The position numbers and the translations under genes were made by a program. DNA of 64,000 nt from a virus (taxonomy: Duplodnaviria; Caudoviricetes): IMG/VR virus record IMGVR_UViG_3300028887_000090, positions 37,852-101,851 of that record. One strand, written 5' to 3'. The notes under the pieces are model-generated. The model did no database searches. It was not told where the DNA came from and saw nothing but the letters and a program-made list of their open reading frames with translations. Shown here piece after piece: positions 3 to 18,237 of this stretch (positions within the stretch are counted from its first letter, which is position 1; every line of letters begins with the position of its first letter).

Positions 3-128
3 AGTTACCATCTGAAGGATATCTGCAACTGCATTACTTCCTTTGTAGGGGGGGGTATTGGCAAGGATTCAGTAACAGGCATGTATAACACAACTCCGTA
101 TATTTTGATTGAGTATGAACTATTATAA
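3..128 (+). CDS. TRD-like mini-ORF 1 (5' truncated by window edge), G8 tract, in frame
   Basis: Frame 3 reads SYHLKDICNCITSFVGGGIGKDSVTGMYNTTPYILIEYELL*; G8 at 48-55; ends in the LIEY motif shared with the other cassettes. Confidence 0.65.
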   Translation, partial: SYHLKDICNCITSFVGGGIGKDSVTGMYNTTPYILIEYELL

Positions 129-305
129 TTCGCGTCTGTGCGAAATGATTAGGGGGGGCAATGGCGACCACAATATCATGGCGAAATGCTTGACACCTAT
201 AACCAGAACGCCCATCGTAAGGTAGCGATAACCGTTTTGGCTGGCATCAGTTCGCGAAACCACTATTTTGTTTGTGAAGAAAGAACCAATAAATTCAGAA
301 AGTAT
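115..305 (+). pseudogene. TRD-like mini-ORF 2, frameshifted at G7 (OFF); with G8 it fuses in frame to the methyltransferase core
   Basis: ATG at 115 inside GAGTATGA; G7 at 152-158; adding one G gives MNYYNSRLCEMIRGGQWRPQYHGEMLDTYNQ...ITVLAGISSRNHYFVCEE, continuous with ORF 186..1847. Confidence 0.6.
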
Positions 306-1847
306 ATGATCGCAAAGATTTATCCCGACGGACACCCTGATCTTCAGGGTAAAAAGGATCCGAAGCATCCCGTGCGATACTTCGACATCCGAAAACTTAC
401 CCCCCCCGAATGCTATACACTCATGGGGGTACCGCAGCAGCGCATAGCGCAGCTGATGGCAACCGAAAAACGCCCATATACGGCATTTATCGGTGTAGAG
501 GAGGAACTAAGGCTCTTTGGTCTGGAAGAGTCAGCCTCGATGAAAGATGTGCTGGATGCCTACAAGGAGGCGATGCAGAGTTGTGATGAGTTTGACCAGG
601 AAACACAGAAGAAAATCGATGAAGGTTTTCTCAGTCCTGACAGCAGACCCACAACCGATGAAGATGGTGAGGAAATCATCTATCCCTACGACGATGAAGA
701 GAGCTACCAACGTTACCTGGAGCAGTTGAAGGAGGATTTGGAAGGTAACAAACTGGTACGTCAGAATTACGATGAAAGATACGCAAAGATCCGTGCCGCA
801 CCTACTGAGGAACGTTTTGGCGATGTGCAGATAATCTCAAATAGTTCGCACTATAAACTCGCAGGAAACTCGATTGTCTGCGATGTGCTGATGTATATCT
901 ATGAAGAATTTCTCTATCCCACCGGTCGCCGTATTCCTACCGAGCAGCAGGATTTATTCGCGCTGCCGCAATTCCGTTTAGAGCGCGACTGGAAGAAGAA
1001 ACCATTGAAACTTGTTACGCTATGCTCTGGCTATGACTCGCAGGCCATTGCCTTCGACATGCTGAAAGAGCGTTATCCTGATTTTGATTACGAGCTGACG
1101 GCATGGGCTGAGTTTGACCCTGAGAGCAAGCGCCCATTGGAAGAGCAACCCGCAGTGGTGGCCCATAATCTGCTATTCCCTCAGTGGGCCGACCGTAATC
1201 GTGGTGATATGACCAAGTGTGATTGGAGTGACCTGAAGGATGCAGAGGTGGATTTTCTTACTTACTCTACGCCGTGTCAGTCGATCTCACAGGCAGGTAA
1301 GCGTGAGGGCATTAAGAAGGGATCTGAAACCCGTTCGGCTGTGCTCTGGTACACCGAGGAAGCCGTGAAGGTGATGAAACCGAAGATCCTGATGCAGGAG
1401 AATGTGCGTGCGCTGATAAACAGCGTGAACATGCCCGACTTCAAGGAGTGGTGTCAGCTGCTGGAGAAATATGGTTACGTGAACTTCCTTGCGCCCTCAT
1501 TCCCGACATTGTGGGGAGAGACCAAACGCGACAAAAAAACCATTCCTGGCATTCTCAATTCGAAGCACTATGGCGTGCCTCAGAACCGCGAGCGCGTCTA
1601 TATGATTTCTATCCGTCAGGATGTGTTGGGTGATACGCAGTATGAGTTCCCGCGTCCTTTCCCCCTGGATAAGTGTATTGCCGACATTCTGGAGTCAGAT
1701 GTCGATGAGCGTTTCTTCCTGAAGCCCGACTCAGTGATTAAGTTCCTGACTGTGAATGAGAGTGACCAGAAGGCTCAGATCTTCTATGTAGTGACTGACC
1801 ATAAGTTGACGGATGAAGAAATCGCCCAGGCTCGTAGTCGTAAGTAG
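186..1847 (+). CDS. Circularly permuted DNA (cytosine-5) methyltransferase catalytic core (start may be ATG 306)
   Basis: Motif order is IX (IRKLTPPECYTLMG), X (YKLAGNSIVCDVL), I (LCSGYDSQ), IV (YSTPCQSISQAG), VI (QENV), VIII (GVPQNRERVY); no TRD sits between VIII and IX. Confidence 0.9.
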   Translation: MLDTYNQNAHRKVAITVLAGISSRNHYFVCEERTNKFRKYMIAKIYPDGHPDLQGKKDPKHPVRYFDIRKLTPPECYTLMGVPQQRIAQLMATEKRPYTAFIGVEEELRLFGLEESASMKDVLDAYKEAMQSCDEFDQETQKKIDEGFLSPDSRPTTDEDGEEIIYPYDDEESYQRYLEQLKEDLEGNKLVRQNYDERYAKIRAAPTEERFGDVQIISNSSHYKLAGNSIVCDVLMYIYEEFLYPTGRRIPTEQQDLFALPQFRLERDWKKKPLKLVTLCSGYDSQAIAFDMLKERYPDFDYELTAWAEFDPESKRPLEEQPAVVAHNLLFPQWADRNRGDMTKCDWSDLKDAEVDFLTYSTPCQSISQAGKREGIKKGSETRSAVLWYTEEAVKVMKPKILMQENVRALINSVNMPDFKEWCQLLEKYGYVNFLAPSFPTLWGETKRDKKTIPGILNSKHYGVPQNRERVYMISIRQDVLGDTQYEFPRPFPLDKCIADILESDVDERFFLKPDSVIKFLTVNESDQKAQIFYVVTDHKLTDEEIAQARSRK

Positions 1848-2029
1848 TGCCGTGTTGCGGGGTGTTCGTACTGAGCATGCCCGTGCCGTGCGCCGCATTT
1901 ACGGAGATAGGGGGGGGGCATTGCCACTTCTCTGACCGTAATTTTCTTCCGGCTACTGATGGGTGTAGTAATACGATAACTGGAATATTGAAGGATAATT
2001 TGTTATTGATTGAGTATGATGATCATTAA
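1813..2029 (+). pseudogene. TRD-like mini-ORF 3, frameshifted at G9 (OFF)
   Basis: ATG 1813 overlaps the MTase end; G9 at 1910-1918 leads to an early TGA; with G8 it reads ...RTEHARAVRRIYGDRGGHCHFSDRNFLPATDGCSNTITGILKDNLLLIEYDDH*. Confidence 0.65.
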
Positions 2030-2198
2030 AGAGACTGAGCCAACTGCCGATATGAAGCCTGTTCGAATATCGGCAAGCCGTGGTAGGGGGGGGCAAAACG
2101 CTACCCACCAAGTCATCGAATTAGGGTCATGGCAAGCAACGAACACAATTACCTCAGTACAGAAGGATAATATTGTATGGATAGAGCGAGATTTATAA
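2016..2198 (+). CDS. TRD-like mini-ORF 4, G8, in frame
   Basis: MMIIKE...ISASRGRGGQ...ATNTITSVQKDNIVWIERDL*; G8 at 2086-2093; NTITSVQKDN is typical of variable regions in Bacteroidota/phage C5 MTases. Confidence 0.7.
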   Translation: MMIIKETEPTADMKPVRISASRGRGGQNATHQVIELGSWQATNTITSVQKDNIVWIERDL

Positions 2199-2326
2199 GG
2201 AATGTGGGGGGGGTATATTCGCAATGTACTCCCGACTTCAACCGAGGTTGGCTTTGGGGCCTCTCTCGATGTATCAAAGCCTCGATGAATGATGCCGCAA
2301 TATTGATAGAGTATGACTATGAATAG
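2177..2326 (+). CDS. TRD-like mini-ORF 5 (49 aa, below the ORF-track cutoff), G8, in frame
   Basis: MDRARFIRNVGGVYSQCTPDFNRGWLWGLSRCIKASMNDAAILIEYDYE*; G8 at 2206-2213. Confidence 0.65.
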   Translation: MDRARFIRNVGGVYSQCTPDFNRGWLWGLSRCIKASMNDAAILIEYDYE

Positions 2327-2476
2327 GAAATATAAGATAGGTGTTCATATCGTAGGCCATCGTTTAGAGTGGCACGGCGAGGGGGGGCAGACTCGACTAT
2401 GTGGAAAGATATCTGTCCTTGCATTCGCATGAATGATTATAAATGTCCGATGAATATATTGATTGAGTATGAGTAA
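2313..2476 (+). pseudogene. TRD-like mini-ORF 6, frameshifted at G7 (OFF)
   Basis: ATG 2313 inside GAGTATGA; G7 at 2381-2387; with G8 it reads ...WHGEGGADSTMWKDICPCIRMNDYKCPMNILIEYE*. Confidence 0.65.
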
Positions 2477-2723
2477 GGTACGCCATTTCAAACCTCGGTG
2501 TCCCTTCCTTCAGATTGCTACGAGGGGGGGGCAAATCGTGTTACAAGTTCGTCAGGCAACCGAGCAAGGCTATATCGAATGCGTCAGTGGTGGCGTGTTC
2601 GATATGGCTTACCCTACGTCTCAGCTTCGTCGCGCCCGTGTCAAAGACGATGGCCGTGTGGCATCGGCATTGATGGCAGGAGAAACCTCACAATGTGTAT
2701 TTCTGGAGTATGACCTCGATTAA
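2469..2723 (+). CDS. TRD-like mini-ORF 7, G8, in frame
   Basis: MSKVRHF...TRGGQIVLQVRQATEQGYIECVSGGVFDMAYPTSQLRRARV...FLEYDLD*; G8 at 2524-2531; the RQAT..GY...YP.S..RR.RV pattern is typical of phage C5-MTase TRDs. Confidence 0.75.
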   Translation: MSKVRHFKPRCPFLQIATRGGQIVLQVRQATEQGYIECVSGGVFDMAYPTSQLRRARVKDDGRVASALMAGETSQCVFLEYDLD

Positions 2724-2910
2724 ACTATCCAAGACTACCTCCGCACCTCCAAGGGCTTATGGGGGGGGGTATTTGTTGCCTGTCAACACCGCAGCAGGAG
2801 GAATCTGTTGCACACTCAATACCAGATACGACGGCATGCAGTTGCCGGAGGACATCTTATCACTCGCACACTATCCTAAGACGGTTGTGCTCATCGAATA
2901 CAATCTATAA
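2710..2910 (+). CDS. TRD-like mini-ORF 8, G9, in frame
   Basis: MTSIKLSK...AYGGGYLLPVNTAAGGICCTLNTRY...HYPKTVVLIEYNL*; G9 at 2761-2769. Confidence 0.7.
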   Translation: MTSIKLSKTTSAPPRAYGGGYLLPVNTAAGGICCTLNTRYDGMQLPEDILSLAHYPKTVVLIEYNL

Positions 2911-17631: not shown

Positions 17632-17997
17632 ATGACAAAGAATGAAGTAAAAAAGCATGTTCCTGATGTGTGCGTACAGAAAATTACGCTCAGGAATTGT
17701 TCGGCTATAGCTACTAAAGCGAAGGTCGTAGCAGAAAGTATGGGCACCGGTTTGATTTGTTATGATTGGAATGGTGAGCGTGACCTACTCAGTATCTTTA
17801 CCTCTTATGATTTTAAGGATTTCTTGGATTTCCTGAAGCCTGGCGTGAAAGTCACTAATAAGTATGGTGGTGAGTTTACTATTGAGAGTGAGCCGTATTT
17901 GGAAAACTGTAGAATGTGCGTTCGTGCCAATGGCGATGTCTGGTTTTGTGATGTGTTGTATAATCCGACGTTGAACTATAAAGGAATGTTACAATGA
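17632..17997 (+). CDS. Hypothetical protein
   Basis: 121-aa ORF in the operon. Confidence 0.6.
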   Translation: MTKNEVKKHVPDVCVQKITLRNCSAIATKAKVVAESMGTGLICYDWNGERDLLSIFTSYDFKDFLDFLKPGVKVTNKYGGEFTIESEPYLENCRMCVRANGDVWFCDVLYNPTLNYKGMLQ

Positions 17998-18237
17998 ATA
18001 GGTCTAATGTTGGAGTGAAACAGGGGGGGGGTAAAATCGCCCTTCAGAGGAAACGGTCTGAGTCGTACCGCCATGTTGTTTAAGATAGCGACGCTGGCAG
18101 GTCATAAACTGACTATTCCAGAAATGAATAAGTTTAAAGAGGTGAATCCTCGTAGTCTTGAACAAGTATATAATGAAGTGGTTCGCGTAGGCGATGCCGG
18201 TAATGCCCGATTCGCTTTGCAACTGATATTAAAATAA
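17994..18237 (+). pseudogene. Hypothetical 80-aa gene frameshifted at a G9 tract (G8 restores the frame)
   Basis: ATGA overlap with the upstream stop; G9 at 18023-18031; removing one G gives an open frame to TAA 18235-18237, 4 nt before the next ATG. Confidence 0.6.

Follow-up and report, generated by a model that had tools for sequence, protein, structure and literature searches.

A repeated joint between target recognition mini-genes of a gut phage C5 methyltransferase: probable three-frame stop and start punctuation and a boundary for module exchange

Analysis of the window, a 64,000-nucleotide (nt) stretch forming the 3′ 64 kb of the 101,851-bp IMG/VR virus record IMGVR_UViG_3300028887_000090, demonstrated that a 14-nt motif recurring between positions 105 and 2713 lies at the joints of an array of short open reading frames (ORFs), here called cassettes, that surround a C5 cytosine methyltransferase gene and resemble the target recognition domains (TRDs) of such enzymes. 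The motif is probably an overlap joint of consecutive TRD mini-genes, in which stops in three frames and one start codon form a punctuation mark coupling their translation, and which also serves as a module boundary for exchange. The phage has a genome of approximately 102 kb, originates from the bovine gut or rumen, and is present in sequencing runs from 13 studies. For comparison, four loci whose methyltransferase core is 68–72% identical to that of the window (L006–L009) and six further loci at 61–76% were analyzed.

Anatomy of the junction motif

The 14-mer TTGATTGAGTATGA occurs exactly at 105-118, 2006-2019 and 2459-2472, with a one-mismatch copy (TTGATAGAGTATGA) at 2303-2316 and a variant (TCTGGAGTATGA) at 2702-2713. 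When up to two mismatches were allowed, four matches were obtained against 0.61 expected, and none of 100 shuffles reached four. Each copy encodes the peptide L-I-E-Y-(D/E) at the end of a short ORF (F-L-E-Y-D at 2702), and its ATG is the start of the next short ORF in the +1 frame. An earlier inspection of the letters alone (the sequence-only reading) had listed these copies and variants and had described the shared tail with the ATG that opens the next cassette; the former proved to be far above chance, and the latter was confirmed by ORF reading. Beyond that listing, we found two joints of another shape (core to G at 1813 and H to I at 2177), cassettes upstream of the window, and G-runs in every cassette. 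At 46 joints, the upstream stop lies 1–19 nt beyond the downstream ATG, the arrangement of co-directed overlapping genes. The features of the array in the window are as follows.

3-128, plus strand: 3′ part of cassette E, the last of the stand-alone upstream cassettes A-E; G8 run at 48-55
105-118, plus strand: junction from E to F, exact 14-mer; the E tail is L-I-E-Y-E, and the ATG at 115 starts F, which with an in-frame G-run forms the N-terminal TRD of the core
115-1847, plus strand: cassette F and the permuted C5 methyltransferase core, in the order TRD-IX-X-linker-I..VIII; G7 run at 152-158, one G short; C8 run at 400-407 in motif IX
1813-1847, plus strand: joint from the core to G; ATG at 1813 within the core codons for T-D-E-E-I, core stop at 1845-1847
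1813-2910, plus strand: the six stand-alone TRD mini-genes G-L, given singly below
1813-2029, plus strand: cassette G, G-run starting at 1910
2006-2019, plus strand: junction from G to H, exact 14-mer
2016-2198, plus strand: cassette H, G-run starting at 2086
2177-2198, plus strand: joint from H to I, of a second type; ATG at 2177 inside the GTA-TGG of the H tail I-V-W-I-E-R-D-L, 22-nt overlap
2177-2326, plus strand: cassette I, G-run starting at 2206
2303-2316, plus strand: junction from I to J, TTGATAGAGTATGA; TGA-TAG in the frame of the next gene
2313-2476, plus strand: cassette J, G-run starting at 2381
2459-2472, plus strand: junction from J to K, exact 14-mer
2469-2723, plus strand: cassette K, G-run starting at 2524
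2702-2713, plus strand: junction from K to L, TCTGGAGTATGA; tail F-L-E-Y-D
2710-2910, plus strand: cassette L, G-run starting at 2761, the last in the array
2893-2910, plus strand: tail of cassette L, ATC-GAA-TAC-AAT-CTA-TAA; the same peptide motif with no ATG or ATGA and with preferred codons, a natural control

The methyltransferase is encoded by the ORF at 186-1847, which matched PF00145 (1.4e-38) across core residues 333-519 only, that is, the part with motifs I–VIII, and resembles M.HhaI and M.MpeI across motifs IV–VIII. Motifs I, IV, VI, VIII, IX and X are readable in the translation. Motifs IX and X are N-terminal and I–VIII C-terminal within one ORF, as in type H circular permutants such as M.BssHII (PMC5944983). 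The core end, L(S/T)DEEI, is conserved across the core family. Cassettes A-E stand alone and F is core-joined upstream, and the six cassettes G-L lie downstream of the catalytic part. F is the sole cassette able to join the core; all other TRDs have their own ATG and stop, and no polypeptide with several TRDs between motifs VIII and IX was found in the array. The array extends 5′ of the window, with five further cassettes at genome 36.9-38.0 kb, so that A-D lie outside it. At least 11 loci share this layout, the most distant at 61% core identity.

Conservation, codon choice and loss at array ends

Base composition around the ATG was scored at 44 sites in five loci, two of which were false picks. 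GA at -4/-3 (from the Glu codon), T or C at -1, the ATG, and mostly A at +3 were fixed. The codons for Leu, Ile and Glu differ in their third base, and the exact 14-mer is therefore not conserved as such. The ATG was invariant at all 42 true junctions, and it is kept even at an internal joint where Tyr has changed to His (GAG-CAT-GAT).

Codon choice at the junctions is biased. Leu is encoded by YTG at 21 of 25 positions, compared with 45% genome-wide, and Ile by ATA at 16 of 24 (genome, 20%) and by ATC at only 1 of 24 (genome, 48%). The bias toward YTG and ATA places a TGA or TAG in the frame of the next gene just before its ATG. Such a stop lies at most 15 nt upstream of the ATG in 29 of 33 unique junctions, against 17.8 ± 2.6 under synonymous-codon shuffling, where 0 of 5000 trials reached 29. 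The A after the ATG gives a third-frame TGA at 31 of the 33 junctions, and the coding frame itself stops a variable 1–6 codons further on. In this way, all three reading frames are closed by the 14-mer around a single start codon. The sequence-only reading had claimed conservation at the nucleotide level; third positions vary freely between relatives, and what stands of the claim is the preference for stop-creating codons.

Array ends provided a control. Terminal copies of family L (here, L006 and L007) end in ATC-GAA-TAC-(AAT/TTC/TTA), with a non-acidic residue last; the internal L copy of L008 ends in ATA-GAA-TAT-GAG-TGA. Internal copies of family K end in TAT-GAY, the terminal K copy of L008 reads ATC-GAA-CAC, and the terminal K copy of L009 retains CAT-GAC. 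In the six further loci, the ATG is embedded in all 18 tails that precede another run-bearing cassette, and 7 of 15 tails with no follower lack it. Because the ATG and the codon features are lost at array ends, the nucleotide features serve the next gene rather than the upstream protein.

These data also bear on the idea, raised in the sequence-only reading, that the motif is a +1 recoding site at which a shift from TAT-GA to ATG-A makes TRD polyproteins. In favor of recoding, every following cassette is in the +1 frame, and a conserved sequence would mark the point of the shift. However, the new frame always opens with an ATG, which a frameshift does not need, and the re-pairing required at established +1 shift sites, as in prfB, is not open to tRNA-Tyr, which cannot move from UAU to AUG. 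Instead of occupying the A site, the zero-frame stop is a variable 1–6 codons away; stops close the +1 frame as far as the ATG, and the ATG is dropped in terminal copies. Complete stand-alone ORFs are predicted by gene callers and occur in run-free relatives, and a polyprotein made of TRDs only would still be unjoined to the catalytic core. We therefore give recoding hardly any credence.

Homopolymer runs as switches

Every cassette carries a run of G7 to G9, and eight of the nine G runs of six or more in the window lie within 48-2769. Most cassettes are in frame with G8 and lack one G with G7. The runs are hypermutable. L006 and L007 are 97% identical, and all of their single-nt indels fall in G-runs (six runs) or in the C-run of motif IX. 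A contig from sequencing run X2, which belongs to another study, has approximately one single-nucleotide polymorphism in 3 kb relative to the window and differs from it in length at six of eight G-runs; run X5 differs at two. Thus, run length varies between near-identical genomes and toggles the reading frame, as in a contingency locus. Logan contigs of several sequencing runs, which carry no within-sample run-length frequencies, break at the G- and C-runs, as expected from mixed lengths.

The core is subject to similar switching. The G7 run of cassette F (152-158) leaves F out of frame here, in L006, L007 and L009, and in run X2; F is in frame only in L008, where a C-run breaks the core. The C8 run at 400-407 lies inside motif IX (K-L-T-P-P-E); L006 also has C8, and L007 has C9, with its core broken. 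L008 has a C10 run approximately 30 nt further on, in L-M-G-V-P codons, and L009 has no such run. These differences suggest that homopolymer switches arose on the core itself at sites that are not homologous. Relatives of the core in the protein database occur as F-joined proteins ('...MIRGGQW...'), as proteins called from an internal ATG, and as proteins starting after motif IX, which fits the occurrence of all switch states in nature. Full-length proteins with F in frame are among them (e.g., P0158-P0165).

Across the window and L006–L009, 30 cassettes are one G short, five are one over and 19 are in frame. The OFF states are thus strongly one-sided; possible causes are a tendency of the runs to contract, OFF as the resting state, or slippage (transcriptional or -1 ribosomal) by which G7 is decoded. 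Cassettes with no run also exist. A 'locked' A-like copy at L009:6554-6808 reads ...T-A-G-H-G-N-C-P-K-I-L-I-E-Y-E, and a complete 'locked' A-type ORF of 54 aa at L019:2790-2954 encodes G-G-G-K in mixed codons. Two candidate exceptions were considered and rejected. Fusion of cassette I to the core in L009 was ruled out, as this cassette has its own ATG and a TAG abutting the run, and junctions lacking G-runs in L019 were ruled out, as G6 runs are present along with a few run-free cassettes.

Translational coupling and frame insulation

In the usual OFF state, the run lacks one G and the ribosome shares the frame of the next ATG; with no stop in between, it would enter the next cassette. No frame reads through any joint. 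In approximately half of the cassettes, the OFF frame is closed 6–12 nt before the next ATG by the junction TGA or TAG.

Shine-Dalgarno (SD)-like cores precede 5 of 119 long ORFs, compared with 12% in random sequence, and the leaders are A + T-rich. Leaders of this style, rich in A + T and with no SD sequence, are typical of Bacteroidota hosts. Together with the bovine-gut origin, the depletion of SD cores and the A + T-rich leaders point to a Bacteroidota (Prevotella-like) host. In such a phage, overlapping starts would be an obvious way to start a dozen end-to-end genes. Co-directed overlapping genes couple by termination-reinitiation and are often subunits of one complex (PMC6728339, PMC10666635). 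The probable coupling role suggested by the sequence-only reading is well supported by the comparison of loci, in which the ATG is invariant, survives the Tyr-to-His change, and gives way to TAC or CAC where no cassette follows.

The joint can accordingly be pictured as doing four jobs at once. It encodes the conserved last β-strand of the upstream TRD (two hydrophobic residues, Glu, Tyr or His, and an acidic residue); in ordinary fused enzymes, this strand occupies the same place and continues into a further TRD or motif IX. Its (T/C)ATG would start the following mini-gene, which is in the +1 frame. Its YTG for Leu, ATA for Ile, and GAx after Tyr create a TGA or TAG in the next frame 6–9 nt before the ATG and a TGA over the ATG in the third frame, with the coding frame stopping 1–6 codons later. 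A ribosome arriving in any frame would then end within approximately 10–20 nt of the next ATG, with no read-through. This closure would matter because, depending on the upstream G-run, a ribosome may arrive in each of the three frames. In a host lacking SD-led initiation, the joint would allow termination-reinitiation coupling, and the ON or OFF state of each cassette would be kept independent of its neighbors. Fourth, it marks the boundary for exchange, gain and loss of cassettes, because it is the sole sequence common to all cassettes and neighboring genes overlap there.

Several points weigh against this interpretation. The A at +3 is inseparable from the need for Asp or Glu, save through the control offered by terminal copies. 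The codon bias (TTG, and ATT or ATA over ATC) could partly serve an A + T-rich, unstructured start context, so that only the preferences for ATA over ATT and for YTG over TTA or CTT speak specifically for stop creation. The junctions are related by descent, and the shuffle test therefore overstates their independence. In approximately half of the cassettes, an OFF-frame stop already occurs 20–55 nt (rarely more than 100 nt) before the joint, which makes the junction stops there a backstop rather than the acting terminator. Finally, we infer initiation at the junction ATGs, and with it reinitiation by ribosomes at the joints, from conservation, and free TRD mini-proteins are likewise presumed to act in trans with the core.

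Cassettes as TRD modules

A profile of family K matched 601 protein clusters among 1.84 billion representatives. Long matches were PF00145 enzymes with the K segment between motifs VIII and IX (P0039) or among tandem TRDs before motif IX (P0029, P0051 and P0126); these are conventional mono- and multispecific enzymes. Short matches (51–110 aa) were stand-alone ORFs ending at the same hydrophobic-Glu strand. The location of K-profile matches in the interval between VIII and IX identifies the cassettes as TRD modules, with homology established by profile for family K and by motif-level reading for the other families. The junction sits exactly at the linker that follows the last strand of a TRD in fused enzymes. 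The sequence-only reading had called the cassettes otherwise unrelated, which holds only in part, since every one of them is TRD-like and there are paralogues among them (families D and L). The family is abundant in rumen and gut viromes, with hundreds of protein clusters, and the core has approximately 2,800 relatives.

Nonsynonymous and synonymous polymorphism (pN/pS) was 0.27/0.73 before the run and 0.16/0.73 after it, with wrong-frame controls at 0.31/0.19. These values indicate purifying selection on both cassette halves, each in its own frame, though synonymous sites are saturated. They argue against the view that the motif is a by-product of a decayed, once-fused multispecific methyltransferase broken by frameshifts, in which the shared motif would be only the end strand of a TRD and the ATGs would have no function. 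Fused enzymes with the same TRD types in tandem do exist (P0029, P0051 and P0126), and many cassettes are out of frame in assemblies, as the counts of 30 one G short and five over against 19 in frame attest. Nevertheless, besides this strong selection, internal joints invariably keep the ATG and terminal ones lose it, 11 or more loci share the layout even at a core identity of 61%, near-identical genomes differ in the lengths of their runs, and run-free 'locked' stand-alone ORFs occur. Decay is accordingly quite improbable.

Structural evidence was limited. Single cassettes had no matches in Pfam, and profile searches of the K and D/L families against PDB sequences gave chance-level matches only. 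A model of cassette K (predicted local distance difference test score, pLDDT, 79.7) is all-β, with the tail predicted as a short strand and the Gly-Gly encoded by the G-run at the turn between the first two strands; Foldseek and VIA-align searches with this model returned no structural match. The model of the full-length core with F in frame had a mean pLDDT of 54, too poor to use, and predicted docking of stand-alone K on the core, with scores of 0.00, 0.77 and 0.27, counts neither way.

Module exchange between phages

The cassette order here is A B C D E F-core G H I J K L, that of L006 and L007 is A B D F-core G H M C J E K L, and L008 and L009 differ again. Families C and E are upstream of the core here and in L009 and downstream in L006 and L007; in L008, E is downstream together with B and D, and C was not found. 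Where a cassette has different neighbors in two loci, homology starts -6 to -20 nt from its own ATG and ends +4 to +13 nt from the next ATG, and where the neighbor is the same, homology continues for more than 170 nt. A swap was also observed in run X5: in the major form (depth approximately 26), 2185-2468 (cassettes I and J, 282 bases) is replaced by 123 other bases, and a collinear minor form (depth approximately 6) co-exists with it. The left end of the swap lies in the H/I overlap and the right end at the 2459-2472 junction (joint 2185 to 2468). These results demonstrate exchange at the joints.

The sequence-only reading had proposed the motif as a recombination point and had asked whether indel breakpoints of related arrays fall there. 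Homology does break within approximately 15 nt of the ATG at a joint, and with the differing order and side of cassettes and the X5 swap, the motif stands as a module boundary; that its microhomology itself promotes exchange we only infer. The same reading had held that a fixed cassette order with freely varying synonymous positions would speak against it. The order is not fixed; synonymous positions do vary, with biased codon choice.

A stronger form of this proposal makes the motif primarily a recombination site for gain, loss and reordering of cassettes, perhaps through breaks by the adjacent HNH endonuclease or a phage recombinase acting on microhomology, with the coding and start role secondary. 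It draws on the differences in order and side between relatives, the breakpoints at most approximately 15 nt from the ATG, the co-existence in one sample of a swap bounded by two joints, and an HNH_3 gene that adjoins cassette A in 7 of 10 loci and lies inside the array in L019. We consider it unlikely. Only approximately 8 nt are invariant, all explained by Glu, the Tyr or His codon, the ATG and the following GA, so that coding and start needs fully account for them, and synonymous positions vary. The junctions are not homogenized; concerted evolution was rejected, as the preference for GAG here and for GAA in L006 reflects the codon usage of the respective genome. The last cassette lacks the motif at its 3′ end, where a flanking site would be needed, and all copies are direct, so that recombination between them gives deletions and not shuffling. 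Selection for intact overlapping genes would leave the same breakpoints at gene boundaries. No integrase was seen in the 9-kb loci.

The database protein P0002 (89 aa) is a hybrid with an A-type half before the run and a K-type half after it, joined at the Gly-Gly. Judged from this hybrid, the G-runs may be a second exchange point.

Comparison with known systems

The joint resembles coupled overlapping gene pairs (ATGA/TGATG; PMC6728339, PMC10666635), in which the downstream start is shared with the upstream end and the products often belong to the same complex; the TGA that overlies the ATG in the third frame is a classic ATGA overlap. It differs in that the coding-frame overlap here is 4–22 nt in the +1 frame, that the joint is repeated approximately 11 times in series, and that stops occur in all three frames, apparently because the G-run allows each upstream gene to be in any frame.

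The permuted C5 enzymes (M.BssHII, type H; PMC5944983) share the order TRD-IX-X-I..VIII of the core, and M.AquI α/β is a C5 enzyme that works from two polypeptides split in the variable region (PMC5944983). The array differs from the multispecific enzymes in that its core is circularly permuted, with cassettes on both sides. Multispecific C5 methyltransferases of phages, of the SPR/phi3T type, are reportedly described in the literature of the Trautner laboratory. They are likewise built from one catalytic core and several TRD modules of approximately 40–80 aa, with the same TRD types (K-, H-/G- and A-like), each of which ends in a strand of three hydrophobic residues and Glu at the junction position. 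Their TRDs are part of one polypeptide between motifs VIII and IX, whereas those of the array are separate ORFs, each with its own ATG, stop and homopolymer switch. To our knowledge, no known permuted or split C5 methyltransferase has an array of alternative, separately encoded TRDs.

Poly-G phase variation in phages has been described for receptor-binding proteins of Campylobacter phages (Cell Rep 2021, as cited in PMC12823448), and a T2/T4 preprint (10.1101/2025.10.21.683753) deals with contingency loci of this kind in phages. As there, coding runs of G7–G10 vary between near-identical genomes and toggle the frame. Unlike those loci, a dozen switches here stand in series in an operon-like array and are isolated by the junction. 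No published description of split, run-switched TRD arrays or of their joints was found in the literature.

Neighboring genes and other runs

The HNH_3 endonuclease gene of this phage (L001:134-448, genome 36589-36903) lies just 5′ of the window; where such a gene adjoins the array, it stands directly before cassette A. The HNH_3 gene within the array of L019 starts at a junction motif, and that of L009 ends in GAG-CAT-GAC-TGA, the same type of joint, with cassette A.

The sole G run of six or more in the window outside the array is a G9 at 18023-18031, between ORFs 17632-17997 and 18073-18237, which may be another switch or a split gene. A second methyltransferase gene outside the window, PF01555 N6_N4_Mtase (8.6e-14; L037:5764-6432, genome 20763-21431, minus strand), stops exactly where a G7 run lies, and its profile match breaks off at 182/221. 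G8/G9 runs also occur at genome 16281 and 17818 (minus strand), in ORFs with no clear family, one of which has E-P-A-C-G-E-G, resembling an S-adenosylmethionine-binding motif.

Implications

The motif would explain how many alternative recognition modules for one methyltransferase are packed into 3–4 kb, each independently switchable. Because the joint is predicted to stop ribosomes in every frame near the next start, a slipped G-run would neither silence the next module nor fuse to it. Gene callers currently report this family as truncated methylases and many tiny hypothetical proteins. The joint defines natural module boundaries, which can be used for tests of free-standing TRDs, for prediction of methylation from metagenomes, and for C5 methyltransferases of swappable specificity.

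A bolder proposal, which we offer tentatively and hold with less than even confidence, is that the junction evolved as a 'frame-reset' mark making a dozen switches independent of each other, and that free TRDs dock in trans on one permuted core. The phage lineage might then hold thousands of combinations of methylation specificity, as a combinatorial, bet-hedging anti-restriction system whose modules are also traded between phages at the same mark.

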